Shown here piece after piece: positions 766-39,080 of a DNA stretch of 54,083 bases. The stretch's first letter is position 1, and every line of letters starts with the position of its first letter. The position numbers and the translations under genes were made by a program. The DNA lies in assembly GCA_002469885.1 (NCBI GenBank), contig DKOI01000112.1:1-54083 (forward strand), written 5' to 3'. The notes below the pieces were generated by a model. The model did not search any database, was not told the DNA's origin, and saw only the letters and a list, made by a program, of their open reading frames with translations. This stretch comes from Legionellales bacterium UBA7366 (GTDB lineage Bacteria; Pseudomonadota; Gammaproteobacteria; UBA7366).

Positions 766-897
766 ACAGGATCCTCATATTCACTGGTTTGAAAGATCAT
801 CTATCTTAGGTGATTTATACTAAACTGTCATCTATTGATTCCTGGGGTAAATATAGTGACAATACGTCCTATTTTATGCAAAGCAGGAACAAAAATC

Positions 898-2904
898 ATG
901 TCCAATAAACAAGACCTCGCCAATGCCATACGCGCCCTAAGCATGGATGCCGTCCAACGGGCTAACAGTGGTCACCCAGGCATGCCCATGGGAATGGCCG
1001 ATATTGCCCAAGTATTATGGAACGACTTCCTCGTCCATAACCCAGCAAATCCTCAGTGGATGGGGCGCGATCGATTTGTATTATCAAATGGTCATGGTTC
1101 TATGTTGCTTTATTCTCTATTGCATTTAACGGGTTACGCTGTGAGCATCGATGATGTGAAGAACTTCCGTCAATTGCACTCCAACACACCAGGGCACCCT
1201 GAATATAATGATACCCCCGGTGTTGAGACAACCACAGGTCCATTAGGCCAAGGTTTAGCCAACGCTGTAGGTATGGCCATTGCAGAGACGCAACTGGCAG
1301 CTCAATTCAACAAGGAAAATATCCACCTGATCAATCATTTTACCTATGTTTTCTTAGGAGATGGCTGCTTAATGGAGGGAATTTCTCATGAAGTATGCTC
1401 ACTGGCTGGCACGCTAAAACTCGGAAAACTCATCGCTTTTTGGGATGATAACGACATCTCAATTGACGGCAACGTCAGCGGATGGTTCACAGATAAAACA
1501 CCTGCACGTTTTGAAGCCTATGATTGGCACGTCATCGCAGATGTTGACGGTCACGACCCTGAAGCGATTCACGCAGCGATCGCACTAGCTCGCTCAATAA
1601 AAGACAAACCCAGCATGATCTGCTGCAAAACAACCATCGGCAAGGGCGCACCGGGTGTTGCAGGCACGGCAAAAGCTCACGGCGCACCTTTGGGCGATGA
1701 GGAAATCGCATTAGCGCGCAAAACGCTAGGCTGGGCGCACGCACCGTTTGAGATACCCGCAGACATTTACGCGGCCTACGATGCAAAAACAAAGGGCGCA
1801 GAATCTGAAGCTGCTTGGAATACATTGTTTGAACAATACTCAAAAGCACATCCGGCATTGGCCAAGGAGTTCGCGAGACGCACAAAAAACGAACTCCCTG
1901 AGAACTGGCAATCAATTGCAGATGACTTCGTCACAGCTACAACCCACGAAAAAAACCCACAAGCCACACGAAAATCTTCACTGGCTTGCATCAAGACACT
2001 CACTAAAAGCCTACCTGAGCTTGTTGGCGGCTCTGCCGATCTTAGCGGTTCAAATTTAACCCAGTGGCCAGAAGCGACGACATACTCTGCTAAGAACCCT
2101 GCGGGCAACTACATCAATTACGGCGTACGCGAGTTCGGCATGTCTGCGATTGCTAACGGTATTGCTCTGCACGGTGGTTTTATTCCCTTCATTGGCACGT
2201 TCTTAGTCTTCTCCGATTATGCAAGGAACGCTATAAGATTGTCGGCGATCATGAATCAAAAAGTCGTGTACGTGTTTACGCATGACTCTATCGGACTCGG
2301 TGAAGATGGCCCGACACACCAACCTATCGAACATTTCGCAAGCTTACGCTTAATTCCTAACTTGTCAGTCTGGCGCCCCTGTGATCTCACAGAGTCTGCT
2401 GTTGCCTGGCGACACGCGGTTGAATACCAAGGCCCAACCAGCCTGCTCTTTTCTAGACAGAATTTAGCACAACAAAACGCCAGCGGCCGAAACGTAGCTG
2501 ACATCGCAAAAGGCGGCTATATCCTGCTGGATTGCGAAGAAACACCCGATATCATACTAATAGCAACAGGCTCCGAGGTTGAACTTGCCATGCAAGCGGC
2601 TAAAAAACTAACGGATTTAAACGTTCGTGTCGTTTCAATGCCATCATGCGACCTATTTGACGCCCAAGACGCTAACTACCGAGAATCCGTACTCCCTAGC
2701 ACCGTCACAGCACGCGTGGCGATTGAAGCGGGAAGTACTAATTTTTGGTATAAATATGTTGGCTTGCAAGGTAAAGTAGTAGGTATAGATCGCTTTGGTG
2801 TAAGCGCTCCAGCAGAAGATGCTTTTAATCTACTTGGATTTAGTGTCGCCAATATAATTAACATTGTAAAAACAGTAGCGCAAACTTCAAGCGCTCTAAC
2901 TTAA
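898..2904 (+). CDS. tkt: transketolase
   Basis: ORF 835..2904. Preferred start is ATG 898 ([32 protein letters not shown]). It has the TPP-binding GDGCLMEG motif and is 668 aa, typical of TktA. The 835 TTG extension has no support. Confidence 0.95.
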
Positions 2905-2928
2905 AAAAACATCGAGGAGATTTATTAC

Positions 2929-3939
2929 ATGACAATCAAAGTTGCAATTAATGGCTATGGTCGCATCGGTCGCAATATCTTACGCGCACTGTATGAGTCC
3001 GGTCACCGTGACAACATTCAAATCGTTGCGATCAATGACTTGGGCGATACAAAAACCAATGCGCATTTAACTCAATACGATACCGCTCACGGAAAATTTT
3101 CAGGCACCGTGGAAACCTCGGGCAAGAACCTTGTCGTCAATGGCGACACGATTCGCACAGTGGCAGAGCGTAACCCTAAAGACTTGCCTTGGAAAGAATT
3201 AGACATTGACGTTGTGTACGAATGCACGGGCGTTTTTGCTAGCCGTGAAAAAGCCTCTGCCCATATCAGCGCAGGCGCCAAGAAAGTCATCATTTCAGCG
3301 CCCGCTGGAAAAGACATGGATGCCACTGTCGTTTACGGCGTAAACCACAACGACTTAAAAAGCAGCGATCAAATTATTTCAAACGCTTCTTGCACAACCA
3401 ACTGTTTGGCGCCACTAGTCAAACCACTCAACGAAGCTTTTGGTCTTGAGTCTGGTTTAATGGTAACGATACACGCTTACACAAATGACCAAGTGCTAAC
3501 GGATGTTTATCACACCGACTTACGCCGTGCGCGCTCTGCAACGCAATCAATGATCCCAACCAAAACGGGGGCGGCTGCAGCTGTCGGTCTAGTCCTGCCT
3601 GAGCTTGACGGAAAATTAGATGGTTACGCAATGCGTGTTCCCACCATTAACGTCTCTGTTGTTGACTTAACGTTTAAAGCGATGAAACCTGTTAGCGTAG
3701 ACGATGTCAATAATTGCCTTAAAAAGGCAAGCGCAGGGGAATTGAAAAATGTATTAGCCATCAACGAAGACCCTTTGGTGTCTATCGACTTTAATCACAA
3801 CCCAGCATCTTCTATTTTTGATGCAACCCAAACAAAGGTTATTGGTGACCTTGTAAAAGTGGTCTCGTGGTATGATAACGAATGGGGTTTCTCAAACCGC
3901 ATGTTAGATACAACGATGGCCTTAATGAACGCTAAATAA
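2929..3939 (+). CDS. gap: glyceraldehyde-3-phosphate dehydrogenase
   Basis: 336 aa. Has the NGYGRIGRN Rossmann motif, the catalytic SNASCTTNC, and a GAPDH-type [17 protein letters not shown] loop that Epd lacks. GAGGAG RBS upstream. Confidence 0.93.
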
Positions 3940-3971
3940 TTTAACTCAATAAAGAGCTAAGGAGAATAATA

Positions 3972-5156
3972 ATGCCTTTGTTAAACATGAAAGATGTCGA
4001 CCTAAAAGGAAAACGGGTACTCATCCGTGAAGACTTAAACGTTCCATTGAAAAATGGCGCTATCACGAGTGACGCACGCATCCGCGCCGCCTTGCCCACC
4101 ATCGAATACGCTTTATCACAAGGCGCGCTCGTTATGGTTGCCTCTCACCTAGGACGGCCTGACGAAGGCATTATTACAGACGAACTTTCCCTAGCGCCGA
4201 TTGCTGAAAGAATGCAAGAATTGTTAGGCAAACCCGTAGACCTTGCTCAAAATTGGTTAAAAGGCGTAACGCCCGTGCAAGATCAGGTGATCTTGCTTGA
4301 AAATGTACGTTTTAATCGCGGCGAAAAAAGTAACAGCGATGAATTATCGCAAGAGATGGCTGCCTTGTGTGACGTGTTTGTGATGGATGCTTTTGCAACC
4401 GCTCACCGAGCAGAAGCTTCGACATGCGGTATAGCCGAACATGTTGCCGTAGCCTGCATGGGTCCATTGCTCTCCTTAGAATTAAGCACCATCACCAAAT
4501 TGTTAGATAACCCCAAAAAACCGGTTGTTGCCATTGTGGGCGGTTCTAAAGTCTCAACAAAATTAGCCTTGCTCGACAACTTAAGTAAAAAAGTAGATGC
4601 ACTTATCGTAGGTGGCGGCATCGCTAATACCTTTCTTGCTGCAGAAGGCTATAGCGTGGGTAAATCACTTTACGAACCAGATCTCATTGATGAGGCTGAA
4701 CGGTTAATGAAAGAGGCCAACGAAAACGCTGTTGAAATTCCTCTACCAACCGATGTGGTCGTTGCTGATAGAATGTCGGCTACCGCAGAGAGTTATATTC
4801 AACTTGTCGCTGATATTGATGAAGATGAAAAAGCATTAGACGTGGGCCCCGACACCATTCGCACTTACGTCAAGTTAATTAAATCCGCTGGCACCATTGT
4901 ATGGAACGGACCTGTAGGCGCATTTGAAATTGAGCAATTTTCTAAAGGCACAAAAATTTTAGCGTTAGCCGTCGCTGATAGCGATGCTGTTTCTGTCGCA
5001 GGCGGAGGCGACACCATCGCAGCTATCGATCATTACAATGTTAGAGACAAAATCTCCTACATATCAACCGGTGGAGGCGCGTTCTTAGCCTTGTTAGAAG
5101 GCAAAGAATTACCGGCTATCACTGCTTTAGAAAACAATCAAAAGGAAAACGCATGA
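3972..5156 (+). CDS. pgk: phosphoglycerate kinase
   Basis: 394 aa with full-length PGK architecture ([27 protein letters not shown]). Sits in the conserved tkt-gap-pgk-pyk order. Confidence 0.95.
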
Positions 5157-6610
5157 GCGAGAAACTCCGTCGAACAAAAATCGTAGTCACTCTGGGGCCC
5201 GCGCTCGATAATCGAGAAACACTGGAAAATGTCTTTGACGCTGGCGGCAATGTCTTTCGCTCGAACTTTTCACACGGTACGGCAAAAGATCATGAAAAAC
5301 GTATTAGCATGGTGCGCTCGGTAGCAAAATCAAAGGGCACCGAAATTGCAATATTTGCTGATTTACAAGGCCCAAAAATTCGTGTTGCTCGTTTTTCCAA
5401 TAGCAAAGTCACATTAGCACACGGACAAGAATTTACTTTAGATGCAAGTTTGAACGACGATGCAGGTGACGAAAACTGCGTTGGTATTGATTATAAAAAC
5501 TTACCCAAGGACGTTTCTGCTGGCGATAAGTTATTGCTAGACGATGGCCGTATTATCTTTTCGGTTAAAGAAATTTCTGGCAGCAAAGTAATTTGCAATG
5601 TCGATGTAGGCGGTGAACTGTCAAACAATAAAGGCATCAACCGACTAGGCGGCGGCTTAACAGCTGAAGCTTTAACCGATAAAGACCGTGAAGATTTAAA
5701 AACCGCCGTTGCACTGGGCGTAGACTATATTGCCGTTTCCTTTCCAAGGAACGCGCAAGACATCCATAATGCGCGCAAGCTATTAAAAGCTCAAAATAGT
5801 GATGCAGGTATCATCGCAAAGATCGAGCGCAAAGAAGCCTTGGATACACTTGAAGAAATCATTGAAGCCTCTGATGCTATCATGGTAGCCCGTGGTGATT
5901 TAGGTGTTGAAATTGGTGACGGTGAATTGCCCGCCGCTCAAAAAGAAATTATCCATAAAACACGCATACTCAACAAACCTGTCATCACTGCGACACAAAT
6001 GATGGAGTCAATGATTACAAACTCTATCCCAACACGTGCTGAAGTATTTGATGTTGCCAATGCTGTTTTAGATGGCACCGATGCCGTCATGCTTTCTGCT
6101 GAAACCGCGACCGGTGATTTTCCTGAAGCCGTTGTTGCTGCAATGGCGCGCATTTGTTTAGCCGCTGAAAAACAACCTAGATCAATGATCTCAGGTCATC
6201 GTGTTGAATGTCGTTTTGAAGATGTGGATGAAGCAATTGCCATGGCAACCATGTACACGGCGAATCATTTTGCTATTGATGCGATTGTTTGTTTAACCGA
6301 ATCAGGATCAACGCCTTTATGGATGTCACGCATTCGCTCAGGGATTCCTATTTACGGCTTAAGTAGACACATCAATACGCGCCGAAAAATGACATTATTC
6401 CGTGGTGTATATCCTGTTGCATTTGATGCCACTCAGCACGAACGTCCATTATTAAACGAAAAAGCGATAGATGAAATCAAGAATCTTGGCTATGTTGAGG
6501 ATGAAAATCTTGTCATCATCACAAAAGGTGATTCAATGGGCGTACATGGAAGAACGAATACGATGAAAATTTTCAAGGTGGGTGAAGCGAGCATCAACAA
6601 GGCGGACTAA
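5153..6610 (+). CDS. pykA: pyruvate kinase (PykA-type)
   Basis: 485 aa. N-terminus is [12 protein letters not shown] and the [10 protein letters not shown] motif is present. ATGA overlap with the pgk stop suggests translational coupling. Confidence 0.92.
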
Positions 6611-13328: not shown

Positions 13329-14297
13329 ATGCCTAACATGGATACAATTGGCGCATTAAGCGCCCGTTTAAATGAACGCATACTCGGTCAAGCCCGATTA
13401 GTTGACCGCTTAGTCATTGCTCTACTCTCAGATGGACATTTATTAGTTGAAGGCGCGCCTGGACTGGCTAAAACGACAGCCATAAAAGCGTTGGCGGAAC
13501 AAATTGATGCTGATTTTCAACGTATTCAATTCACGCCTGACTTATTGCCCGCTGACATTACAGGCACAGATGTGTACCACCCTCAAGATGGCTCGTTTAG
13601 CTTTCAACCTGGACCTATTTTTAGGCACATCGTGCTTGCCGATGAAATTAATCGAGCGCCTGCGAAAGTACAATCAGCACTGCTCGAAGCCATGGGTGAA
13701 CGCCAAGTCTCTATTGGCAGCAAAACACACAGCTTGCCGGATCTGTTCATGGTAATGGCAACACAGAACCCTATCGAGCAAGAAGGCACCTACCCCTTAC
13801 CCGAAGCACAGCTCGATCGCTTTTTAATGTACGTAAAAATTGATTATCCTGATACACAAACTGAACAAAGTATTTTACAGCTCGCCAGAGACGAAGCATT
13901 GAACGGGAAAAAAGAAATATCAGCATCACATCAGCGAATAGCACAAGAAAGTATCTTTTCTCTTCGAAAAGAAATTTTGCGGTGCCATATGAGCGACGAG
14001 TTAGAGCGTTATATCGTTGAGCTCATTTTAGCGTCACGTGATCCATCAAAATACGGTGATGATCTTGCTGCATGGATCAGTTATGGCGCAAGTCCTAGAG
14101 GCACAATTGCACTGGATCGCTGCGCTCGTGCGCATGCCTGGTTAAAGGGGCGTGACTTTGTGACGCCCGATGACATCCATCAAATTGCACATGATGTGTT
14201 ACGTCATCGCATTTTATTAACCTTTGCAGCTGAAGCTCAAGGCATTACCAGTGATGATGTGATCAGTGAGTTGCTCACACGCGTTGCGGTGCCCTAA
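13329..14297 (+). CDS. MoxR-family AAA+ ATPase
   Basis: Walker A GAPGLAKTT and Walker B VLADEINRA, with MoxR (AAA_3) length and layout. Start ATG 13329 is preferred (AAAGGA 7 nt upstream) over the track start 13311. Confidence 0.88.
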   Translation: MPNMDTIGALSARLNERILGQARLVDRLVIALLSDGHLLVEGAPGLAKTTAIKALAEQIDADFQRIQFTPDLLPADITGTDVYHPQDGSFSFQPGPIFRHIVLADEINRAPAKVQSALLEAMGERQVSIGSKTHSLPDLFMVMATQNPIEQEGTYPLPEAQLDRFLMYVKIDYPDTQTEQSILQLARDEALNGKKEISASHQRIAQESIFSLRKEILRCHMSDELERYIVELILASRDPSKYGDDLAAWISYGASPRGTIALDRCARAHAWLKGRDFVTPDDIHQIAHDVLRHRILLTFAAEAQGITSDDVISELLTRVAVP

Positions 14298-15202
14298 TGA
14301 AAAATTCAGGCATTAGCGTTAGCTTAGATGAATTAATTCAATATCATTTGGCCGCAAAAAAATTGCCTTTGTATACAAAGCAAAAAGCAGGCTCGCCTCT
14401 TGCTGGACAATATATGTCATCTTTATACGGTCGCGGCTTAGATTTTGCAGAAACACGTGCTTACATGCCAGGCGATGATATTCGAACTATGGATTGGCGA
14501 GTACTTGCACGTACAGGAAAGCCCCATACCAAACGTTATCATGAAGAGAAAGAGCGTCCTGTTTACTTTGTTGTCGATTATAATGAGAGTATGTTTTTTG
14601 GCACGCGTGTCACATTCAAGTCAGTGATCGCAGCACGTGCAACAGCAATGTTAGCATGGGCTGCTAGCTATCAACATGACAAAATTGGCGGCATCATTTT
14701 TTCCGGCAATGAACAAATTGAAATGCGGCCTAAAATTGGAAAGCGGGGCGTTTTGCCCTTACTCAAACAATTAGCCGACACCCAAGTAGCGCCGAACCCA
14801 ACCTATGATAGTGAATCATTTTCCTTAGCCTTGCTAAGACTACGTTCTGTGTGTAAGCCGGGGAGTTTGATTTTTATCATGAGTGACTTTAGTGAATTCA
14901 ATCAATCCCACTGTGTGCATTTAACAGCCTTGGCAAAACACAATCTCGTCAACGCCTGTTTGATTCGTGACCCACTGGAAATTAATCCGCCGCCACCAGG
15001 ACTCTATACAGTCAGTGACGGGAAAGATCATCTCTTTTCATTTTCAACTTTCGATAAGAAACAGCAACTTGATTATCACGATGCTCTGGCTGATCATCAC
15101 AAGTACGTATTGCAACAGCTTGAAAAATTGCGGATCCCTGTGATTGATTTGCAGACTGACTCAGATATTGTGAATGCAGTTGTTCAACACGCAAGCACTT
15201 AA
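14297..15202 (+). CDS. DUF58-family protein (MoxR partner)
   Basis: 301 aa. The segment DFAETRAYMPGDDIRTMDWRVLARTGKPHTKRY is the DUF58 signature. TAATG stop/start overlap with the MoxR gene. Confidence 0.8.
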   Translation: MKNSGISVSLDELIQYHLAAKKLPLYTKQKAGSPLAGQYMSSLYGRGLDFAETRAYMPGDDIRTMDWRVLARTGKPHTKRYHEEKERPVYFVVDYNESMFFGTRVTFKSVIAARATAMLAWAASYQHDKIGGIIFSGNEQIEMRPKIGKRGVLPLLKQLADTQVAPNPTYDSESFSLALLRLRSVCKPGSLIFIMSDFSEFNQSHCVHLTALAKHNLVNACLIRDPLEINPPPPGLYTVSDGKDHLFSFSTFDKKQQLDYHDALADHHKYVLQQLEKLRIPVIDLQTDSDIVNAVVQHAST

Positions 15203-15230
15203 GGGGGTAGGGGGTAAAAACGTCAGGCAT

Positions 15231-15267
15231 AAAAAAAAGGACGGAAAATGGGGTTTACCGTCCTTTT
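15231..15267 (-). terminator. rho-independent terminator (best on minus strand; may also stop the DUF58 gene)
   Basis: AAAAGGACGG (15235..15244) pairs with CCGTCCTTTT (15258..15267) across a 13-nt loop. Read on the minus strand, the hairpin is followed by a run of 8 T in total. On the plus strand only TTTT follows the GC core. Confidence 0.7.
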
Positions 15268-15374
15268 CGGCTAATAAGCCAGGCTATCCTTTGCCCAATC
15301 ATCATCCATGAACGTGCAAAACGAGGAGTGGCTATAGAAATCCTTTTCCAGGCCTGTGATTCATCCTGAACCAC
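15231..15374 (-). ncRNA. candidate CsrA-binding sRNA (RsmY/RsmZ/CsrB-like), about 144 nt
   Basis: Minus strand carries an extended -10 TGATATAAT (rc of 15381..15389). It is followed by about 144 nt with six GGA motifs (CAGGAUG, CUGGAAA, AAGGAUU, AUGGAUG, AAGGAUA, AAGGACG) and ends at the U8 terminator. There is no credible ORF. Not verified by a covariance model. Confidence 0.45.
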
Positions 15375-15610
15375 AATAAAATTATATCAAAGCTGAATTA
15401 TTTAGAAATAATGCTATTGAAAAGTATTCGAAGTAGCGACTGGGCATAAACAAGCAAGATGAATATAAGTTGTTTTTTTTCAACAAGTTAGACCAGGTTT
15501 TTACCTGCGCATGAGTTTAAGGTTAAACTAGAAACGAACAATGGCTTACATGAATGTGCGAGATATCTCACGAATCGTCCGGGCGATCATCCTGTTATGT
15601 CGGCAGCCCC

Positions 15611-16063
15611 TTAGCTCCGCTTGATAATTAAAACAACACCATCGTGGCCTGTGACTGTCACTTGAGTTCCTTTCTTAAAGTTTTCTTTCGCACTCACCAT
15701 CCAAGTTCTTCCGTCTAATTGGATTTTGCAGCGTTGCTTCTTCATATTTTTCTGTAAAATAATGGACTTGCCCATACACGTTTTTGCGATATTGTAATTT
15801 TCCAAACCGGGACGCCTTAAGCGTGCGCCGCTTCTAAGCGTGCGGTACCAAAAAATAGTCGTCAGACACGCCATAATAGCAAATGTGATAACCTGCGCAT
15901 AGCCCTCATAGTGAGACAGTATTTTTTGGAGGAAACCTACCCATCCTGCAATCACGGCATACCAGAAACAATAGCCTTGTCCCCAGATTAATTCTAAGGC
16001 AAGAAACATTATGCCAAATACAAGCCAGTTCCATATTGTTAGATTATGAACAAAGCTAACCAT
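15611..16063 (-). CDS. NfeD-family membrane protein
   Basis: 150 aa. Three N-terminal TM helices and a C-terminal OB-fold-like tail (KIQLDGRTWMVSAKENFKKGTQVTVTGHDGVVLII), typical of NfeD/YbbJ. Confidence 0.7.
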   Translation of the reverse strand: MVSFVHNLTIWNWLVFGIMFLALELIWGQGYCFWYAVIAGWVGFLQKILSHYEGYAQVITFAIMACLTTIFWYRTLRSGARLRRPGLENYNIAKTCMGKSIILQKNMKKQRCKIQLDGRTWMVSAKENFKKGTQVTVTGHDGVVLIIKRS

Positions 16064-22990: not shown

Positions 22991-25120
22991 TTACCAGCCA
23001 GCGCCAATTGTTCTCCCATTCAGGCCAACATCATTTTTCCCACCAAAGCCTTGCTCAAAATCCGAGGCTTTATCCGTTTTTGGATCCGTATTACAACGGT
23101 AAAACGGCGTGAGGTGACCACTAGAAAAGCTCAACTTCATAGCGCTCAGATTTGGCAAGCCTGACCTAAAACTTGTTGCGGCTATAATAAGGCCATATAA
23201 AAAGTATCGATTATCAACGCCTAAAGTGCTACTCAACACATCCAATGTTTCTTCCTGTGCGTTAAGCGCAACCATGCCAGCCGTATTTAATAGCAAGCTG
23301 CCGTAAGCAATGATTTTTTTCCATTTAAACTGTTTATTAACAGATTGCTCTAACGAATTTTGCTCTCCCTCATCAACAGGCGCAAACGTAAAGCCTTGAG
23401 ATTTTGTATGTGTTTTATCACCAAATAACTTGGCGTAAGCCGCATCAAAGAAATCATTAATTTGTATTTGTACTTTTCGGCCACCCCATAAGGCATCTGT
23501 TGACACAAAAACGATGGCAACAAAACTCGCCAACTCAGGGGGTATTGGTGCACTAAAAAATTCTGTGATCGCTGAAAACACATAATAATTAGCTAACGCA
23601 TACGTTAAGTTCAAACTCTGGCCTACTGCAACTTTTACTATTTCAAATACAATGAAGGCAGTAATTTTAACAAAGGCAGAGCACACATTATGACTGCTCC
23701 ACAACATGGAAATATAACGGGCACTGTCCGCAAGATACATGCCAATGAGTTTAAAAATATTTTCCTTAATAAACTCGGTCAGCACCACCTGGAAGATAGC
23801 GAAAAAACCCAAAGTTGCCATAGCAGCGGATGGAATTGCGACCCATTGCCCAACTAACTCTGCATTGTCTGCCCACTCAAGCGCACCTAGTGATGCCCCT
23901 GCTGATAATGCGGCGAGAATACCGGCCACGATCATGAGTGAGGTACGCCAGCTGACAGGCTGTCCGAAACGATCCTTAAATATTTTTTTATTCAACCACT
24001 GATCTGAACACCACTTAGTGTCGTCACACGTCAGAAAATAGTTCGTGATTGACCCGCCGACAAAAACACACCCTAATGCGACAACCGCCAATACTTTATT
24101 TTGATCTTCTAGCTTTTTATAGATTTCATCCGCCGCAACGCCACCTTCACCAATACCAATCAACAGTGCTGCAATGGCTGCAAAGCCAGCTGTGTAATAA
24201 GTATTTCTGTATTCCTTTCTTACTTCTTCCCTAAAATCTCCAGCTCCCTCAATAGGACTAACATACTGTGTTTTTATGCCTTTCTTTTCTTTATAGATCA
24301 CACGATACGAGGGAAAATGATATTTTGGAAATGCTGCGTGCGATTTACGTTCTTGATACCCTTGCTTTTCCTCGATAGAAAACACTTTTTTTTCTGACAT
24401 CAATCTATCCACGGGCACAATTTGCAATGGCAGATTACAGGTAAGAGCAACATTATCAATGGAAGCCCGCACTACCGCACGCTCATCTTCTAATGCTCTA
24501 GCTTGTTCTCGCGAATTTTTTGCCAGAACACGTAAGTCATAAAGAATTGTTTGGTAAGGTATATTACACACGGCTTCAATATCATCTTTAAACGTTTTTT
24601 CGGCTATCAATGAATAATCAGGGTTATGCTTATAATCTTCTTGATGCAAGATTTTATAATAATAATCGTTTATGTGTTGATTCAATTTTCCAGCATCACT
24701 TTCAGATTTTAATTTACTGGCTAAGGCATGTTGTACACGATCTATTTGAGCCCTGTCTTCTCTATTGAGATAAGCATGATGAGTAATCTGTTGCTTTTTA
24801 AACACACCATACAAATGTTCTAAAAATGACGCCTTCGAGGCAGCAGGTTTATTCTCAGTCGACAACTGATGGACTGTCGGAATTTCATCAACCCCTAAGC
24901 GTGCAAGGACAGCTAACGCTTTTGCATAAGCCAACCCTTCTGCATTGCCTAAACAGCTCCAGCTGATCAACCATTGTTTATGATAAAAATGATTCCGCAT
25001 GAAATACGTAAATGAAGCTATGGGTTTGTTATCAACTAGTCCTTCAAATGCTTGACTATGATAACTGTTGATAATGTCGGAAAGGCTTCCCTCGGGTTGA
25101 GTCAACAAATCTTCTTGCAT
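22991..25120 (-). CDS. hypothetical polytopic membrane protein (orphan; effector candidate)
   Basis: 709 aa. A soluble, charged N-terminal domain of about 320 aa is followed by about 8 predicted TM helices and a Gly/Asn-rich tail. I recognise no family motif. Confidence 0.6.
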   Translation of the reverse strand: MQEDLLTQPEGSLSDIINSYHSQAFEGLVDNKPIASFTYFMRNHFYHKQWLISWSCLGNAEGLAYAKALAVLARLGVDEIPTVHQLSTENKPAASKASFLEHLYGVFKKQQITHHAYLNREDRAQIDRVQHALASKLKSESDAGKLNQHINDYYYKILHQEDYKHNPDYSLIAEKTFKDDIEAVCNIPYQTILYDLRVLAKNSREQARALEDERAVVRASIDNVALTCNLPLQIVPVDRLMSEKKVFSIEEKQGYQERKSHAAFPKYHFPSYRVIYKEKKGIKTQYVSPIEGAGDFREEVRKEYRNTYYTAGFAAIAALLIGIGEGGVAADEIYKKLEDQNKVLAVVALGCVFVGGSITNYFLTCDDTKWCSDQWLNKKIFKDRFGQPVSWRTSLMIVAGILAALSAGASLGALEWADNAELVGQWVAIPSAAMATLGFFAIFQVVLTEFIKENIFKLIGMYLADSARYISMLWSSHNVCSAFVKITAFIVFEIVKVAVGQSLNLTYALANYYVFSAITEFFSAPIPPELASFVAIVFVSTDALWGGRKVQIQINDFFDAAYAKLFGDKTHTKSQGFTFAPVDEGEQNSLEQSVNKQFKWKKIIAYGSLLLNTAGMVALNAQEETLDVLSSTLGVDNRYFLYGLIIAATSFRSGLPNLSAMKLSFSSGHLTPFYRCNTDPKTDKASDFEQGFGGKNDVGLNGRTIGAGW

Positions 25121-25221
25121 AATAGTTTCTTCTCTTTATTCTCCATTAGAGGAAAGAGTATAGAAGAAGTTTATCGATCAATAAAATGAATAATTAAATA
25201 TTTTTGATAAATTTAATTGGT

Positions 25222-25632
25222 TTAGCTGGTTTTTAAATCGCTTGCAAGCTTTGCATCCCTATCGCAATTATTACCTTCCGCATAAACCGCAATAATGGTA
25301 TTGTTTTCGTCAACTTCAAAGGTTGTTTCACATTTAAGAAAATACGTTTCACCTGGGATCACTTCTGTTGGCGTCGTTACCACTTGGCCAGAACCTGTTA
25401 CCGTCACGTAACTCGGATTCACCGATCCAGTTCGCTGCATCTTTTGAATGGCGTTGTAGCGATATTCTGTATTACCATTGCTGGCCGTTATTTTACGCGT
25501 AGGTTGACCCCACTTTGCCACTAGCTCATTGGAGCTCACACCTTTCCAATCTTGGGTCAAGGAATCAGACTGTGTTAACCCACTGCATGCCGTTAGGGCA
25601 AGTGAGATCAAAATAATAACAACGTTTCGCAT
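25222..25632 (-). CDS. small lipoprotein, unknown function
   Basis: 136 aa with lipobox LALTAC at residues 11-16. Confidence 0.65.
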   Translation of the reverse strand: MRNVVIILISLALTACSGLTQSDSLTQDWKGVSSNELVAKWGQPTRKITASNGNTEYRYNAIQKMQRTGSVNPSYVTVTGSGQVVTTPTEVIPGETYFLKCETTFEVDENNTIIAVYAEGNNCDRDAKLASDLKTS

Positions 25633-26515: not shown

Positions 26516-28942
<2,427 letters not shown>

Positions 28943-29016: not shown

Positions 29017-29045
29017 TTGACATATTTGCCTTGAAAATCTATAAT
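29017..29045 (+). promoter_or_regulatory. consensus sigma70 promoter for the DUF4143 ATPase gene
   Basis: TTGACA (29017..29022), a 17-nt spacer, then TATAAT (29040..29045): a perfect match to consensus. A 10-bp inverted repeat TGAAAATCTA/TAGATTTTCA (29032..29041 / 29053..29062) brackets the -10. Confidence 0.55.
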
Positions 29046-29072
29046 AGCACTTTAGATTTTCACGGTGTTTAT

Positions 29073-30203
29073 ATGTTTCGTCCCGAGTACATAGAAAAAA
29101 TCAAGGCGTTACATGAGAGCCACCCCATCGTTGCCTTACTAGGCCCTAGGCAGTGCGGAAAAACAACGCTTGCTCACATGCTAGCGGATTCCGACACCAT
29201 ACCCACCCATTTTTTTGACCTTGAAGACCCAGAAGTCCTTGTCAAACTAGACAACCCAAAGCTTGCGCTTGAAAGCCTCTCGGGGCTCATTGTTATTGAC
29301 GAAATACAACGCTCGCCTGAGTTATTTCCCTATTTACGTGTCTTAGTCGACCAAAACCCGAGCCTTAAGCTGCTCATACTAGGAAGCGCCTCTCGAGAAC
29401 TCATCAAACAGTCCTCGGAAAGCTTAGCTGGCAGAGTCGCCTACATTGAAGTAACACCTTTTAGCTTTACGGAGACAAAGGAGATGCAAAATCTGTGGAT
29501 ACGAGGTGGATTCCCCCGCTGTTACTTAGCGCCCTCTTTTGATGCAAGCATTGCCTGGCGGAAACATTACATTACAACCTTCTTAGAGCAGGATATCCCA
29601 AACCTTGGCATTAACGTTCCACCACAAATGCTGCGTCGATTCTGGATGATGCTCGCACATTTCCATGGCAATGTTTTTAATGCCGCCGACCTAGGGAAAT
29701 CGCTGGGTGTTACTGGGCCCACAATACGCCGCTACCTTGATATCTTAACAGGCACGTTCATGGTGAGACAGCTGCAACCTTGGTTCGTTAATATGAAAAA
29801 ACGCCAAGTCAAATCACCAAAAATTTACTTCAAAGACAGTGGTATTTTTCATACACTGATGGGGATTTCAGACCAAGATACGCTCTTATCTCACCCTAGG
29901 CTAGGCGCATCCTGGGAAGGCTTTGCCCTTGAAGAAATTATACGATATATCGATGCCACACCAGAGGAGTGTTACTTTTGGGCAACGCATGCGGGGGCAG
30001 AACTGGATTTATTAATTATCAAAGACGGAAAAAAATTGGGTTTTGAATTTAAATATTCCGATGCGCCTAAACTCACAGCCTCAATGAAAATTGCCTTTGA
30101 AGAACTTGAGCTTGACTCTCTCACCGTTATCTACCCAGGTAAAAGCACATTCCCATTGCACGAGGGTATCACGGTTTCAGGCCTAGCAAATTATCTCACT
30201 TAA
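29073..30203 (+). CDS. AAA ATPase with DUF4143 C-terminal domain (COG1373-like)
   Basis: Walker A GPRQCGKTT and Walker B LIVIDEIQ, with the family-typical length. The track start 29031 lies inside the promoter, so ATG 29073 is preferred. Confidence 0.75.
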   Translation: MFRPEYIEKIKALHESHPIVALLGPRQCGKTTLAHMLADSDTIPTHFFDLEDPEVLVKLDNPKLALESLSGLIVIDEIQRSPELFPYLRVLVDQNPSLKLLILGSASRELIKQSSESLAGRVAYIEVTPFSFTETKEMQNLWIRGGFPRCYLAPSFDASIAWRKHYITTFLEQDIPNLGINVPPQMLRRFWMMLAHFHGNVFNAADLGKSLGVTGPTIRRYLDILTGTFMVRQLQPWFVNMKKRQVKSPKIYFKDSGIFHTLMGISDQDTLLSHPRLGASWEGFALEEIIRYIDATPEECYFWATHAGAELDLLIIKDGKKLGFEFKYSDAPKLTASMKIAFEELELDSLTVIYPGKSTFPLHEGITVSGLANYLT

Positions 30204-30312
30204 CGTCTCGGCACCGGCGATAAAATCTATTAATGCTGACTTTCCAGCACAGAAATCTCCACGTAGAACTTATATGCTGTTATCAAAACAACCTAACTCA
30301 TGAGATAAAAAT

Positions 30313-30564
30313 ATGAAAGATGCATTTACTCAAGCTGTTAAATACATATATGAACATATTGATGAACTAATCTCCTTAAAGGATATTGCTCTTCATACAG
30401 GCATATCTATTAAATCACTAAAACATTTATTTCAAAAGGCTGTCGAACAAACACCAGGTGCGTTCATACGAAAATTGAAAATGGAGCTTACTTTTACCCT
30501 TTTTGACAAATTTCCAGAAAGTTCAGTCTCTGCAAAAATTACGATAAATGTACTCCTAGCATAA
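30313..30564 (+). pseudogene. AraC/XylS-family HTH fragment (first HTH only; decayed regulator)
   Basis: 83 aa. ISLKDIALHTGISIKSLKHLFQKAVEQTPGAFIRKLKMEL corresponds to HTH-1 plus the linker helix of an AraC DNA-binding domain. There is no N-terminal domain and HTH-2 is missing. A different frame at 30543..30587 reads DKCTPSIKYLRHN, resembling the usual ...TPxxYR C-terminus. Confidence 0.55.
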
Positions 30565-30664
30565 AGTACTTAAGGCACAACGTAGAATGATGAATCTAAC
30601 TGTTTAATTCTACTGATAAAGGGTGCATATCAACCCGCAAAAAAGGCAAAACTTTGAACAAAAG

Positions 30665-30694
30665 TTGGATTTTAACAAAAAATCTGGGTATCAT
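30665..30694 (+). promoter_or_regulatory. possible promoter of the pilus operon
   Basis: TTGGAT, an 18-nt spacer, then TATCAT, ending 31 nt upstream of the ATPase ATG. A weak match. Confidence 0.3.
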
Positions 30695-30725
30695 GAACAG
30701 ATAATAATAAATTGGCTTAATAAAA

Positions 30726-32288
30726 ATGAATAATCAAAGTCAACAAGACGAGCTGGCGCGTCTCACACAATATGCGAACGCTACCGGCACAAGTGTTGTT
30801 ACCAGCACAGCAAACCTTGATATCAAAGATTCGATTCTTGCTGATATGCACCATTGGTGTAAGAAACAAGGCGATATCGCCGTGTTGAACAGTGGCGTTA
30901 TCCTATCATCAAACCCAGCGTCTCGTGATATTCAAAACATTAAAACTGCATTACTCAACAAAGGGCTACGGCCTGGGCGTGTCTATGCCGCCACGCAAGA
31001 TCTAATCAGTTTATTGCTCGCTAACAGCGTGGGCGAGAATGATGACATTGGCGAACAAGAAATCAGTGATCGCCAACAATACCTGCGAAATCTTGTGAGT
31101 GAAGCGATTATCCGAAACGCCAGTGATATTCACATACAAGTTAGACGTAATAAAACCACTATTCGAATGCGGAGTCATGGCACCTTATCCACATACGCAG
31201 AATGGACACAAAAACTCGGCCGTGAAATTGCTGCCGTTGCATTCAATAAAGAAACCGATCACGCAACTTCACACTTCAATCCCCTCGTGCCACAAGATGC
31301 CTCGATGCCGCTTGAAATTAATGGTCGCGATGTGCGTTTGCGTCTTGCAAGCGTGCCTGCGCACGGCGGGTTTGATATGGTTTTTCGTATCTTAACAACA
31401 GGTCATGAGGATTTACTGAAACTTTCAGAGCTTGGCTACACAGAAAAACAAGTGAGCTTGATTGCCGATGCTGTCAAATATCCACACGGTGCTATCATTG
31501 TGGCAGGCCCAACTGGGTCAGGTAAAACCACCACGCTAGCAAGTTGCATGGAAATGATTGACCCTATCCGAAAATTATACTCCATTGAAGATCCTGTTGA
31601 GAAAGTTGTGGAAAAAGCGACGCAAGTGCCTGTGAATACAGACAAAACCGATAGAAGTTTTGCCAGCATGGGGCGAGCAGCTTTGCGAATGGATCCTGAT
31701 GTGATTATTCTCGGGGAAATGCGTGATGAAGACACGGCAAGTGTCATGGTACGCGCGTCAATTACAGGTCACTTGGTGTTAACGACTGTTCATACGAACA
31801 GTGCAACCGGCATTATTACCCGACTAATGGATTTAGGTGTCTCATCAAACTTACTCAGTGATGCCAGCGTATTGCGCTTACTCATGTTTCAACGACTGAT
31901 TGCAAAAATTTGTCCGCACTGTTCGATTCCTTTATCCGAATCAACAAAACATATTCCTCACTTAAGCAGTTGGCAAACTGTCTTTCCTGTGATGAGTGCA
32001 ATGCGTGCAAAAGGCCCCGGGTGTGACAAATGTGACAACACAGGCGTACAAGGTCGAACCGTCATTGCCGAAGTGGTTTGGATTGATGATAAAGGTCGCG
32101 AATTTATTCAGCGAGGGGATACTCTAGGTTGGGACCAATATTTAAAAGAACAAGGCTTTGAGTCTTATCAAATGCATGCAATAACACTAGCCAAATCAGG
32201 CGCTTGCGATCCACTTGACGTTGAAGCAGTCGTGGGCAAACTCGCAATAACCATTGATGGTGGCAAATTTGATTACAGGTCGGTATAA
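30726..32288 (+). CDS. type IV pilus/T2SS assembly ATPase (GspE/PilB family; R64 PilQ-like role)
   Basis: 520 aa. Walker A GPTGSGKTT, Asp-box/Walker B DPDVIILGEMRD, His box TGHLVLTTVHTNSA, and tetracysteine CPHC...CDKC. Confidence 0.9.
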   Translation: MNNQSQQDELARLTQYANATGTSVVTSTANLDIKDSILADMHHWCKKQGDIAVLNSGVILSSNPASRDIQNIKTALLNKGLRPGRVYAATQDLISLLLANSVGENDDIGEQEISDRQQYLRNLVSEAIIRNASDIHIQVRRNKTTIRMRSHGTLSTYAEWTQKLGREIAAVAFNKETDHATSHFNPLVPQDASMPLEINGRDVRLRLASVPAHGGFDMVFRILTTGHEDLLKLSELGYTEKQVSLIADAVKYPHGAIIVAGPTGSGKTTTLASCMEMIDPIRKLYSIEDPVEKVVEKATQVPVNTDKTDRSFASMGRAALRMDPDVIILGEMRDEDTASVMVRASITGHLVLTTVHTNSATGIITRLMDLGVSSNLLSDASVLRLLMFQRLIAKICPHCSIPLSESTKHIPHLSSWQTVFPVMSAMRAKGPGCDKCDNTGVQGRTVIAEVVWIDDKGREFIQRGDTLGWDQYLKEQGFESYQMHAITLAKSGACDPLDVEAVVGKLAITIDGGKFDYRSV

Positions 32289-32320
32289 TAATTCAATCAT
32301 AATAAAAAAAATAAAAAACG

Positions 32321-33373
32321 ATGACAATAAACGATATTCTCGACAAGGCAACAACGCTGTTTAAGAAACTGAGTTTCGGCAATAAACGCCAACTCATTTT
32401 CCTAGAAGATCTATCTGTACTCGTCAGTGACGGCGTTCCCGTCAATCGTGCTATCGATATGCTCACCGAGATATACACAGGCATTAGCCAAGAAGTGGCA
32501 ATCAACTTATCCCAAGCCATTTCTGAAGGAAAACCATTGGCTGAAGCGATGCGCCCTTGGTTTAACGTAAGCTCTGTTGAATTGGTCAGAGCAGGCGAAG
32601 AAGGTGGCACCTTAGATCAAACAATGCATTCAGCCGCCGATGCATTAAAAGAAAAATCCAGTTCCATTTCAGCCGTAGTCGGTGCGATAGTCTACCCCCT
32701 TGTCGTACTGATTGCCGGTTGCCTTGTTATTATTTACATTAACAATTCCATTTTCATCGATTTTAAAGCCATAAAGCCTGTCACCGAATGGCCAACGGTT
32801 GGACGAGCACTAATATCTCTCGCTAACTTTATTCAATATTGGTCATGGCTAGCAATTATCGTTGTCATTGGAAGTATTATCGGATTACGTCACACACTCA
32901 TTAATTATGTCGGTGAGTTACGTCCAACACTGGACAACCTGCCAATCTTCAATGTCTATCGTGATTTAACCGCAGCGCGATTAATGGAAACATTAGGGCT
33001 ATTGGTTTCTAACGGTGTCGTATTCAAAACAGCAATTAAAGTATTGCAATACCACGCCAACCCATACCTCGTCTCTCATTTAATTGGCATGGAGCGTTTA
33101 TTGGGAACCGGTAAAGACAACATTGCAGAAGTGTTGAATACTGGACTTGTCAAACAACAAGATGTGATGCGACTTCGCGTCATTGCTGAAGTGAAAGGCT
33201 TTGAGCACGCACTCATTCGTCTTGGAAAATATGCGGCTATTCAAGGAAATAATACCATCCGAATAGCTGCAAAAATCACTGCAGGCTTTTTGCTTGCTGT
33301 TGGTGGCGGACTCATTATCTTTATGATCTTCGCTATTTATCTCGTGGGTATGTCGTTAGGTACAATCAGTTAA
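32321..33373 (+). CDS. type IV pilus inner-membrane platform protein (PilC/GspF family; R64 PilR-like role)
   Basis: 350 aa with two cytoplasmic helical repeats separated by TM helices. Position is directly after the ATPase. Confidence 0.82.
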   Translation: MTINDILDKATTLFKKLSFGNKRQLIFLEDLSVLVSDGVPVNRAIDMLTEIYTGISQEVAINLSQAISEGKPLAEAMRPWFNVSSVELVRAGEEGGTLDQTMHSAADALKEKSSSISAVVGAIVYPLVVLIAGCLVIIYINNSIFIDFKAIKPVTEWPTVGRALISLANFIQYWSWLAIIVVIGSIIGLRHTLINYVGELRPTLDNLPIFNVYRDLTAARLMETLGLLVSNGVVFKTAIKVLQYHANPYLVSHLIGMERLLGTGKDNIAEVLNTGLVKQQDVMRLRVIAEVKGFEHALIRLGKYAAIQGNNTIRIAAKITAGFLLAVGGGLIIFMIFAIYLVGMSLGTIS

Positions 33374-33399
33374 TAATTAAAATAAGAGGAAAATAAAAA

Positions 33400-33861
33400 A
33401 TGTTAAATAGCCTACAAATTAGAAAAAAAAGAGAAGAAGGGTTCGGTTTGCTCGAATTAATGTTATCAATGGTCGTTGTGGCATTGTTGTTAATCATGGC
33501 AACACGTTACTACCAAAGTGCACGAACATCAGCGCGTGTTAACTCTGCCATTAACATGACACAAGCGGCATTAACCGCTGCTGATAACATCAGTAATGCA
33601 GAGGGTGGTTATACATCCGCTATAACAAGTGATGCGATTAAACCGTTCTTGCCAAACAACAGTTTGCAAACGCCTTGGGGCACGCAATTGACCGTAACGC
33701 CAGCAGGTTCTGGGAGCTCAAGCACAGTAACCTTTGGTATCCCAGCAACCGCAAGCGATTGTACTGCGCTCGTTTCGGCACTGCAAAACACAGCAAACGG
33801 TGCAACATGTGAATCTGACACAGCATCTATCGTCTTTAACTATAACCATAACGCTGTTTAA
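33400..33861 (+). CDS. major prepilin (class III signal peptide)
   Basis: MLNSLQIRKKREEG|FGLLELMLSMVVVALLL has Gly-1, Phe+1 and Glu+5. The mature protein is 139 aa with a C-terminal Cys pair (SDC...17 residues...TC). AGAGGA RBS upstream, and an attenuator hairpin downstream. Confidence 0.85.
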   Translation: MLNSLQIRKKREEGFGLLELMLSMVVVALLLIMATRYYQSARTSARVNSAINMTQAALTAADNISNAEGGYTSAITSDAIKPFLPNNSLQTPWGTQLTVTPAGSGSSSTVTFGIPATASDCTALVSALQNTANGATCESDTASIVFNYNHNAV

Positions 33862-33877
33862 GCTTATGGATAAACAA

Positions 33878-33912
33878 CTGCCCTTTAACGGACTTAAAGG
33901 GCAGCTTTGTTT
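33878..33912 (+). terminator. attenuator/terminator hairpin after the major pilin gene
   Basis: CTGCCCTTTAA (33878..33888) pairs with TTAAAGGGCAG (33894..33904) across a 5-nt loop, followed by CTTTGTTT. Confidence 0.65.
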
Positions 33913-33924
33913 GAGGCAATTAAG

Positions 33925-34695
33925 ATGAAAAACAACAACCAAGGTTTGTCATTACTCGAAATATTACTCGCACTCTCAATTATCAGCGCGATAACTATTT
34001 TGGGCATAAAGCAATATTTTGTATTTAAACAACATAAAAATATTGTCCAAGTCACAAAACAAGTGAATGACTTACTCACAGCCAGTGGAAAGTTTTATGT
34101 CGCAAACTGCATAAGCGACCCATCATCTGATGCGCAATACGCTTCAGCAAAACAAACGTTGGACACCGCGTTACAGGGTGTTAATATCCAAACGGATTTA
34201 CAAGCCTACTTACCCATAGCGGTTGATAGGCTTGTAAACCCTTTCGGTCAATTTGATAATGAACAATCTTATAAAGTCGCGTTAATACAAGCGCCTTTTA
34301 CACCCAAAGATATGACGAGTGGAAACTGGGAACAAAATGATAAAACCTATCACGATAATAATTACAGTACCCAGGGGTTTGATTCGAATGTGTTGTGGCA
34401 AACACAAGTTAAGGCATGCATTACTGAACTGGTTTCAAAAGACTCGGGAGAATCTATAAACCCTGACGCTATCCGGGCTTACTTCAAAGCTGATGGTTAT
34501 GATCTTAACGATGGAAGTTGTACAAACGGGGTGGTATTAACCTGGACACGATTGCCACGCAACGTTGCATTGGCAGGGTCGAATAACGCAAGCGCAAGAG
34601 GCGCTTCAGCGCAATACAATAAAATGGGGCAGTGGTCTCCCTGGATGAAAGAACAATTCGGTCAAGATAGATTTAACTACTTATGTCAAACCTAG
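33925..34695 (+). CDS. minor pilin-like protein (256 aa)
   Basis: MKNNNQG|LSLLEILLALSIISAI has Gly-1 and Glu+5. ATG 33925 with GAGG 8 nt upstream is preferred to the track start 33907. The globular part has four Cys. Confidence 0.75.
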   Translation: MKNNNQGLSLLEILLALSIISAITILGIKQYFVFKQHKNIVQVTKQVNDLLTASGKFYVANCISDPSSDAQYASAKQTLDTALQGVNIQTDLQAYLPIAVDRLVNPFGQFDNEQSYKVALIQAPFTPKDMTSGNWEQNDKTYHDNNYSTQGFDSNVLWQTQVKACITELVSKDSGESINPDAIRAYFKADGYDLNDGSCTNGVVLTWTRLPRNVALAGSNNASARGASAQYNKMGQWSPWMKEQFGQDRFNYLCQT

Positions 34696-34714
34696 ATAAA
34701 CGAGGCAACTAAAA

Positions 34715-35629
34715 ATGCGCGTGATAAAAAAACAACAAGGCTTTAGCCTGCTCGAAGTGATGTTAGTCTTAGTCATTCTAGTTGCATTAGGCACGCTGGC
34801 TATTTCGACTATGCGCAGTAAAATGATCAACGTTCGTTTAGAACGTACGGCTGAGCAAATGCAACAAGTTACACAATCTGCTGTCTCCTACTTTATAGAC
34901 AATCACATGTGGCCTAGCGAATATCTTTCATTTACGACTGACGGCATCAGCACACTGGCGCAAGAAGCTTATCTTCCCCAGTCAATGCTAGATGACAGCA
35001 ACGAATTTACCAGCTCTTGGGGCACACCTTATGAAACCAAGCTCTCTGACAGTGAAGGTCGACAATTTTTAGTCCGCGTGGATGTTGGCAATGAGAGTTA
35101 TGCAAGCGTGTTAAGAGGCATGCTGCCAATGGCCTACCTTGATGGGACGAATGTTATCACTAGCGTTAATGTGCCTAGCTATAATTATAATAACGCACAG
35201 AGCGTCAGTCATATGGGAATTTATACTCTAGGCGCCTGCGTCCCAGAGCCCGCTTGCCCAACGGGAATGAAGGCTCAAATAACGACAACACCTGCTGGCC
35301 TGGCTGGAATAACATCCGTTAACTCAAGTGGCTCAACTACGCCCATCCAGAGTTTCATGGCATATGCCTATGGAAAAAGCAGCAAAGATAAATCGCCCGT
35401 ATCAAAACCTCTCCTTTGCCCAAACCAGGAGTTAACAACGGGCTCTTGCTCAGGTGGAGAAACAGGAAACTATTGGCGCGCATGTTTATCCGGCACAGCT
35501 TCTGGGGGCGAAATTGTTAATTTTACAGAACAAAAGGGCACTGTGAAAAATCACGCTATTCAAATTTTAGCCATGACAAATTGTGTTCCGGAAAAAAACA
35601 GTTCATACACCCAATTTTCTAAAAATTAA
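34715..35629 (+). CDS. large minor pilin-like protein (304 aa; adhesin candidate)
   Basis: MRVIKKQQG|FSLLEVMLVLVILVAL has Gly-1, Phe+1 and Glu+5. The C-terminal 130 aa has six Cys. Confidence 0.75.
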   Translation: MRVIKKQQGFSLLEVMLVLVILVALGTLAISTMRSKMINVRLERTAEQMQQVTQSAVSYFIDNHMWPSEYLSFTTDGISTLAQEAYLPQSMLDDSNEFTSSWGTPYETKLSDSEGRQFLVRVDVGNESYASVLRGMLPMAYLDGTNVITSVNVPSYNYNNAQSVSHMGIYTLGACVPEPACPTGMKAQITTTPAGLAGITSVNSSGSTTPIQSFMAYAYGKSSKDKSPVSKPLLCPNQELTTGSCSGGETGNYWRACLSGTASGGEIVNFTEQKGTVKNHAIQILAMTNCVPEKNSSYTQFSKN

Positions 35630-35755
35630 TGGCAATAGCCTAGAGTATCAAGGAGTTAGAAGAAAATGTTAGCGAAATCGTTGTTTACAATGTGCTCAGA
35701 AACCAGTTATAATCATCAATCTGCTGCAAACAATAACAATAAACGCGGAGACAGA

Positions 35756-37818: not shown

Positions 37819-37832
37819 AAAGAAGAAGATAA

Positions 37833-39077: not shown

Positions 39078-39080
39078 ATT

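Follow-up and report, generated by a model that had tools for sequence, protein, structure and literature searches.

The 54,083-nt contig DKOI01000112.1 of Legionellales bacterium UBA7366 (assembly GCA_002469885.1), the whole of which we refer to as the window, contains a 408-bp gap upon which two genes converge: a DUF58 gene on the left (positions 14297-15202, plus strand) and nfeD on the right (15611-16063, minus strand). A first-pass annotation had placed in this gap, which it rightly described as lacking a credible open reading frame (ORF), a minus-strand small RNA (sRNA) proposed to sequester CsrA. We found that the gap carries an intergenic, stand-alone sRNA gene of 145 nt (15231..15375, minus strand), with its own conserved extended -10 promoter at the start and its own conserved terminator, a hairpin followed by U8, at the end.

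The promoter element TGATATAAT (15381..15389, minus strand) is present as first described, and follows the pattern TGnTAnAnT in all six species compared. Their -10 hexamers (TATAAT, TATACT in three species, TAGAAT and TAAAAT) lie among adjacent bases that have diverged. Because this extended -10 is kept in 6/6 species, the strand of the gene is fixed and its transcription start can be estimated at ~15374-15377; sequence conservation sets in 7-10 nt past the extended -10. At the other end, the GC-core hairpin noted earlier forms a predicted intrinsic terminator (15231..15268, minus strand; -15 kcal/mol, z = -4.3), followed by U8 (15231-15238) on the minus strand as compared with only UUUU on the plus strand, which confirms the polarity first assigned to it. 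The 145-nt unit as a whole folds with a minimum free energy of -47.9 kcal/mol (z = -2.8). A promoter/terminator scanner, whose rules make a -35 match obligatory and restrict the loop to 3-8 nt, detected neither signal for the sRNA. The terminator was probably missed owing to this loop limit, and given the fold and the conservation we rejected the scanner result as proof of absence.

Relatives of the locus were gathered by protein searches with NfeD and DUF58, which returned contigs from related uncultured marine bacteria. The spacer is identical in six contigs of the same species, and the sRNA element was found directly after nfeD in 5/5 diverged relatives, with 89%, 75% and 63% amino acid identity to the window in NfeD (L026, L027 and L029, respectively) or 75% and 63% in DUF58 (L009 and L011). 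The gene downstream of the sRNA varies among species, being DUF58, a TPS-domain gene or another. Across the five relatives the 145-nt unit shares 96.6-100% DNA identity with the window, and the copies in L026 and L027 are identical at 145/145 positions; the coding DNA of nfeD and DUF58 is 65-82% identical, and the unconserved spacer together with the 40 nt past the terminator 43-64%. The conserved block runs from the promoter to 5 nt past the U-tract, and ~100 nt of it, stems included, are 100% identical between species whose proteins share 63-75% identity. This alignment of orthologous spacers, which had been suggested as a check, also showed five GGA motifs and an upstream repeat to be conserved. 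Judged by this conservation, the 145-nt unit is a genuine gene subject to very strong selection.

We built a covariance model of the new family (R1), in which the six orthologues score 177-180 bits. Searching the window with R1 revealed no second copy of the sRNA, and no other gap in the window is GGA-rich; R1 also found no match in two more distant loci from Legionellales metagenome-assembled genomes (MAGs), a DUF58 locus (L033) and a gyrB locus (L034). In a soil metatranscriptome (X28), a contig ~90% identical to the sRNA covers 15257-15349 with 9 differences, and a second dataset whose library type is unrecorded (X29) contains a match to 15264-15394 with changes like those of L009. The family is therefore probably wider than the six species seen here and may extend beyond marine samples. 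A pattern scan of a genome collection (CATGGATGN{6,12}GCAAAGGATAGC) gave a single match, in a coding region of a Chitinophagia MAG, and a three-GGA gapped pattern gave 13 matches in a metagenome collection, all in coding sequence; we attribute all of these to chance.

GGA triplets occur at positions 10, 27, 33, 69, 87 and 113 of the RNA (unit 15375..15231), the same six counted in the first-pass annotation over ~144 nt. No 145-nt segment of the 54 kb, whichever strand is read, has more than six GGA (mean 1.2), the sRNA unit is the only intergenic stretch of the window to reach this count, and shuffled versions of the element contain 2.0 GGA on average (P(>=6) = 0.005). Five of the six are invariant across the variants, four as AGGA and one as AUGGA.

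The predicted fold of the 145-nt RNA consists of three GGA-presenting hairpins, a small hairpin and the terminator, and unpaired probabilities were taken from partition-function folding. Hairpin 1 (15355..15375, minus strand) exposes the conserved GGA at position 10 (CAGGAUG; 15364-15366) in a loop of AGGAU, AGGAA or AGGAC (AGGAN; P(unpaired) 0.98-1.00). Three of its pairs change without loss of pairing: 4:18 from G-C to A-U in L009, 5:17 from G-U to G-C in L029, and 8:14 from C-G to U-G in L011. Hairpin 2 (15330..15354, minus strand) presents the conserved GGA at position 33 (AAGGAUU; 15341-15343) in an AGGA loop (P(unpaired) 0.95-0.99) and buries the one at position 27 (CUGGAAA; 15347-15349) in its stem (P(unpaired) 0.02). 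The latter is the only one that is not conserved, since in L009 pair 27:40 changes from G-U to U-A, giving UUGAAA and abolishing the stem GGA. Hairpin 3 (15287..15327, minus strand), a segment identical in all variants, carries the conserved GGA at position 69 (AUGGAUG; 15305-15307) in a GGAUG loop (P(unpaired) 0.98-0.99). Its closing helix joins an invariant CUCCU (15324-15328) to AAGGAUA, so that the conserved GGA at position 87 (15287-15289) is mostly paired (P(unpaired) 0.10-0.27). The conserved GGA at position 113 (AAGGACG; 15261-15263) lies in the terminator stem (P(unpaired) 0.00).

Of the 49 pairs of the consensus fold, two have changes in both partners and three in one partner, none is broken, and all 11 variable positions are compatible with this one fold, falling in loops or keeping the pairing; as there are only four sequence variants, covariation is limited. 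The earlier suggestion that the GGA motifs could sit in loops thus applies to three of them (P(unpaired) at least 0.95), with CUGGAAA, AAGGAUA and the terminator GGA predicted to be paired; the GGC-AAAGGAUA-GCC loop drawn around one of these is not favoured, as that GGA pairs with the conserved CUCCU. The model accordingly predicts that three CsrA sites are firm and a fourth is conditional, rather than six in all. The contexts CAGGAUG and AUGGAUG resemble the high-affinity CsrA consensus, reportedly RUACARGGAUGU (Dubey et al. 2005).

The upstream region is the strongest new evidence on the nature of the gene. In the aligned spacers, short conserved islands stand within otherwise diverged DNA between nfeD and the promoter. 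The first-pass annotation had pointed to a quasi-palindrome over the -35 position, one half of which it matched to half of a LetA box. This sequence is indeed present (TTATTTCTAAATAA, 15398..15411, read on the minus strand), and within it ATTTCTAA (15402..15409, minus strand) is conserved as RTTTCNAA in 6/6 species, 23 nt before the -10 hexamer. It is neither a full inverted repeat nor a full site, and may represent a weak -35 element (TTTCTA, at a spacing of 16 nt) or else a secondary contact for the activator. The LetA box given there for comparison, TNAGAAATTTCTNA, corresponds to the inner part of an 18-mer that we saw at Legionella rsmY.

A better candidate for the activator site, and one of the GacA/UvrY/LetA type, is the 18-bp inverted repeat CGTGAGATATCTCGCACA (15555..15572; read 15572..15555 on the minus strand). 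It falls beyond the stretch that was first flagged and is centred at ~-188, with distances counted from the first base of the conserved RNA. The repeat is centred at -188 to -191 in all five species for which upstream sequence is available, reading TGTGAGATATCTCGCACA in L026, TGTGAGACATCTCGCACA in L009, TGTGCGATATCTCTGACA in L027 and TGTAAGATATCTCTTACA in L029. The L029 site matches TGTAAGN6CTTACA perfectly, and those of the other four species show 1-2 mismatches to TGTRAGN6CTYACA. Across 130 kb of fetched loci, the latter pattern with at most one mismatch found only the upstream sites, the Legionella rsmY boxes and one site in trkH; its recovery of the genuine rsmY boxes in L031 and L032 served as a positive control.

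The arrangement closely parallels that of csrB. In E. coli, UvrY binds the 18-nt inverted repeat TGTGAGAGATCTCTTACA, as determined by chromatin immunoprecipitation with exonuclease digestion (ChIP-exo) and footprinting (Zere et al. 2015, PMC4682653), and the window repeat is like it at 14/18 positions. In both E. coli and Salmonella the csrB repeat, with the consensus TGTAAGNNNNNNCTTACA (TGTAAGN6CTTACA), has its centre at -183/-182, as compared with ~-188 here, and in E. coli it is followed 5 bp downstream by a partial site, TGTAGGAGA (PMC4682653). At our locus an extra half-site of the TGTAAG type, TGTAAGCCA (15542..15550, minus strand), lies 4 nt downstream of the repeat and is kept as TGTAAGCC, TGTGAGCC or CGTGAGCT in 5/5 species with upstream sequence. 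An IHF site occurs between the UvrY repeat and the promoter of E. coli csrB (PMC4682653), and at the corresponding place here, at ~-108, we found a conserved 12-nt element, AACTTGTTGAAA (15478..15489, minus strand), whose reverse complement TTTCAACAAGTTA agrees with 8/9 specified positions of the IHF consensus WATCAANNNNTTR. In the five species the element reads AACTNRTTGAAA or AAGTTATTGAAA and lies at -108 to -111; it may be an IHF site. According to Zere et al. (2015, PMC4682653), UvrY-type sites serve almost no genes apart from those of Csr sRNAs.

The features by which CsrA-regulating sRNAs have been recognized (Kulkarni et al. 2006, PMC1488887) are found together at this locus: the gene is intergenic and GGA-dense, ends in a rho-independent terminator, places GGA in predicted loops (three of the five conserved ones) and is preceded by a conserved site of the GacA/UvrY/LetA type. 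These sequence-level features support the candidate first put forward, and we consider it likely that the gene encodes a stand-alone, GacA/UvrY/LetA-activated, CsrA-titrating sRNA of the Csr/Rsm class, with a csrB-like promoter layout and a compact body. A response regulator of the GacA/UvrY/LetA type would bind the 18-bp repeat ~188 bp upstream, aided by the adjacent half-site, and a DNA bend at the IHF-like element near -108 would probably bring it to the extended -10 promoter. The 145-nt RNA would then be transcribed up to its intrinsic terminator, displaying three invariant A(N)GGA in hairpin loops and holding a fourth in the CUCCU helix, and through these motifs it would take up CsrA dimers, freeing mRNA targets from CsrA control. 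The locus itself displays the gene boundaries, the promoter and terminator signals with their conservation, a fitting fold, three loop GGA and a conserved repeat with the GacA-family consensus; from these we infer what the activator is and what IHF contributes, as well as CsrA binding and the physiological output. The window also carries a tkt-gap-pgk-pyk operon (835-6610), where CsrA sites of this organism might naturally be sought; in L. pneumophila, transcription of gap is controlled by CsrA bound within the tkt-gap transcript (PMC5338858).

Apart from its promoter, the new gene resembles CsrB of the E. coli and Salmonella BarA-UvrY(SirA)-CsrB/C-CsrA system in being stand-alone and intergenic, in its intrinsic terminator and in its hairpin-loop GGA. 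It differs from CsrB and CsrC in showing no sequence or covariance-model similarity to them, and its host is unrelated to enterobacteria. CsrB is ~370 nt long with roughly 20 sites, as compared with 145 nt and 3-4 usable GGA in the new RNA. The RsmY, RsmZ and RsmX RNAs of Pseudomonas are similarly GacA-dependent, with an upstream TGTAAGN6CTTACA box and GGA loops, but the new RNA matches none of them in Rfam even at E <= 10; the GacA box of the Pseudomonas genes is promoter-proximal.

RsmY of the Legionella LetAS-RsmYZ-CsrA cascade is, like the new RNA, a short sRNA with few A(N)GGA in small hairpin loops and strong conservation between species. In L. pneumophila, rsmY lies between gyrB and lpp0005 (Kulkarni et al. 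2006, PMC1488887). We fetched, via GyrB matches, the rsmY loci of L. taurinensis (L031, 4930-5160) and L. spiritensis (L032, 5210-5375; minus strand), both downstream of gyrB and each with a clear LetA box, read directly from the sequence as TTTGAGATATTTCTTACA and TTTGAGAAATATCTTACA, respectively, which we place ~65 bp before the RNA start. The boxes belong to one family with those described above (compare TTTGAGATATTTCTTACA of L. taurinensis with TGTAAGATATCTCTTACA of L029), and the motif contexts are alike, CAGGAAG, AUGGAUG and AAGGAUG in Legionella RsmY as against CAGGAUG and AUGGAUG here. The layout, however, differs: the box is proximal in these Legionella species, near -65, whereas csrB and the new sRNA have a far-upstream box (near -188 in the new gene) together with an IHF or IHF-like site. 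In L. pneumophila, IHF and LetA act jointly at rsmY/Z (review, PMC4273665). As a correction to the first-pass annotation, the new RNA has no detectable sequence homology to Legionella RsmY and does not lie beside gyrB. Downstream of gyrB (26525-28942) the window has an 88-nt gap and then a DUF4143 ATPase gene, and no rsmY-like RNA occurs there. This DUF4143/AAA_14 gene, directly after gyrB, precedes a 522-bp gap in which the only reading frame is short and helix-turn-helix-like (MKDAFTQAVKYIYEHIDELISLKDIALHTG..., AraC-like by eye); the 29031-30725 segment may be an insertion remnant at the place where Legionella carries rsmY.

A further likeness, by description, is to CbsR12 and CbsR1 of Coxiella burnetii, non-canonical, few-site CsrA-binding sRNAs of the Legionellales that were not found via RsmY/Z homology. 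There are four A(N)GGA sites in CbsR12 and five in CbsR1, and CbsR12 also pairs with mRNAs. Unlike at our locus, no GacA-type box has been reported for CbsR12, a PmrA-like site having been noted instead.

Several observations weigh against assigning the RNA to the Csr/Rsm class. Its 145 nt offer three predicted exposed GGA and one conditional, fewer than in typical members and fewer than the five to six exposed GGA of the 85-87-nt Legionella RsmY at both loci that we examined. Its stems, like its loops, are conserved almost totally, beyond what a simple sponge would need. The R1 model found no match in the L. taurinensis and L. spiritensis rsmY loci, and tblastn searches limited to the 54-kb window found no csrA, uvrY/gacA or hfq. 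At two mismatches the upstream consensus is no rarer in the window than chance (3 observed, 6.8 expected), and the weight of the upstream-site argument therefore rests on the conservation of the site, its position and the perfect L029 copy; the other loose matches, at 40476 and 45704, were discarded as lying inside trkH and a glycosyltransferase gene, respectively. Evidence of expression is weak: metatranscriptome contigs over 15118-15362 are unstranded, have a depth of 2-3 and cross the terminator, and in a 20-kb view of one run the neighbouring genes are covered by equally sparse exact contigs. Since the neighbours are as sparsely covered (in this one run), we did not count these contigs as strong or discrete expression; they show that the organism was sampled, and give no sign of the sRNA as a discrete abundant transcript.

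Covariance searches against Rfam 15, which had been proposed as a check, also gave nothing in favour of the class. At gathering scores the whole window had 0 matches, and at E <= 10 the region 15000-15800 yielded nothing relevant, CsrB, CsrC, RsmY, PrrB_RsmZ and rsmX included; matches to rli56, LhrC, SBWMV and MIR821, all at E >= 1, were set aside as terminator-like or chance. As a control, the genuine Legionella rsmY loci were searched and likewise gave no match at E <= 1. The Rfam negative is therefore uninformative for Rsm RNAs of the Legionellales type, and Legionella RsmY itself appears to lack an Rfam family. By comparison with Rfam 15 and Legionella rsmY, the RNA appears to define a new sequence family within a well-known class of regulators. 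As for the host, described at first as a member of the Legionellales, its best named GyrB matches (68-69%) include a Legionellales MAG and several Legionella, but equally Kangiella, Pseudomonas and Microbulbifer, so that the placement in Legionellales is only a lean.

The unusual invariance of the stems, between species whose coding DNA differs by 18-35%, suggests that the RNA might have a dual function, as does the CUCCU:AGGA helix, which hides the fourth candidate CsrA site beside the anti-Shine-Dalgarno-like CUCCUC. In such a regulator, expressed under far-upstream GacA/IHF control in the manner of csrB, protein titration would be coupled to direct mRNA pairing. The RNA might, for instance, be a switch that depends on CsrA, in which CsrA binding frees a base-pairing seed for mRNAs, or the reverse, and mRNA pairing as in CbsR12 would fit the unusually high conservation of the new RNA. 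We hold this extension of the CsrA-titrating role as possible but tentative.

Chief among the alternatives to a CsrA decoy is a base-pairing sRNA, with GGA motifs that are incidental or have a structural role and an upstream repeat used by another regulator. It would pair with mRNAs through invariant segments that are single-stranded or only weakly paired, such as CCACUCCUCG, which is complementary to a Shine-Dalgarno-like GAGGAG. The ~100 invariant nucleotides, stems included, exceed what loop-only protein decoys need, the conserved CUCCUC adjoins an unpaired CGUU, and Coxiella CbsR12 provides a precedent for action in trans on mRNAs in the Legionellales. However, the three invariant GGA sit exactly atop three hairpins, the upstream site is conserved in position and is a perfect GacA-family consensus in one species, the predicted fold keeps CUCCU mostly engaged with the fourth GGA, and no target was identified. 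We thus regard pairing in place of CsrA titration as unlikely.

It is very improbable that there is no independent RNA gene at all, the element being instead part of the nfeD operon, as its 3' untranslated region plus terminator, or a region bound by protein at the DNA level. The element does always follow nfeD on the same strand, without a strong terminator in between, and the unstranded metatranscriptome contigs ignore its predicted ends. But a conserved extended -10 lies exactly 7-10 nt before the onset of conservation, the DNA from nfeD to this promoter is conserved only in short islands, compensatory changes point to selection on RNA structure, and the downstream neighbour (DUF58, a TPS-domain gene or another) is not constant. 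Finally, although the window contains a 39-codon GTG ORF at 15255-15374 (minus strand), we rejected a small protein gene as having practically no chance of being correct: the GTG start is GTA in L009, no Shine-Dalgarno sequence precedes it, and the substitutions follow no codon-position pattern, all positions being equally invariant over ~100 nt without synonymous-site changes next to neighbours that are 65-82% identical.

Other features of the window were recorded alongside the CsrA-titrating sRNA candidate. Upstream of gyrB and beside an OmpA-family gene, 22991-25632 holds ORFs of 709 and 136 amino acids with no Pfam match at E <= 0.01. Downstream, 30726-39794 encodes a T2SSE ATPase, a T2SSF platform protein, three N-methyl (prepilin-type) proteins, a TcpQ-like protein, a secretin and a weakly TcpS-like protein; it is a type IV pilus/type II secretion-like cluster, and its content suggests a Tcp/type IVb-like pilus. 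A replication origin likely lies at 43450-44217. This 768-bp AT-rich gap, flanked by dapF and a class I (Trp/Tyr-type) tRNA synthetase gene, includes seven DnaA boxes (TTATCCACA, <=1 mismatch) within 43529-44110, and the cumulative GC skew has its minimum at 42-44 kb. The window as a whole has 41 DnaA boxes as compared with 14.7 expected. There is no adjacent dnaA, and rpmH-rnpA-yidD-yidC-mnmE follow 2.5 kb further on. Two perfect DnaA boxes, inverted and 15 bp apart, occur at the window end (54041-54073), after an ORF with a eukaryotic-type Ser/Thr kinase domain (52999-54021; Pfam Pkinase, E = 2.6e-9) that overlaps the end of an opposite-strand major facilitator superfamily transporter gene. 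A short unlisted ORF at 50700-50970 (MSNKIYIGNLSFRADPSDL...GFGFISF...) has the appearance of an RRM-type RNA-binding protein.

CsrA-titrating sRNAs lie beyond the reach of homology searches outside well-studied genera, and Rfam misses even genuine Legionella rsmY. Against this background the locus provides a clean, comparatively supported new family with a complete conserved regulatory region, from an uncultured marine gammaproteobacterial lineage; we see the finding as useful and well supported by sequence comparison, if not surprising. It places a csrB-type layout, with a far-upstream repeat and an IHF-like site, outside the enterobacteria and beside a compact RNA body like those of Legionella and Coxiella. 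The 18-bp box (pattern TGTRAGATATCTCNNACA) and the R1 model offer handles for partner sRNAs and for the Gac/Let regulon of these bacteria, in whose cultured relatives cascades of this type govern the switch to the transmissive, virulent state.

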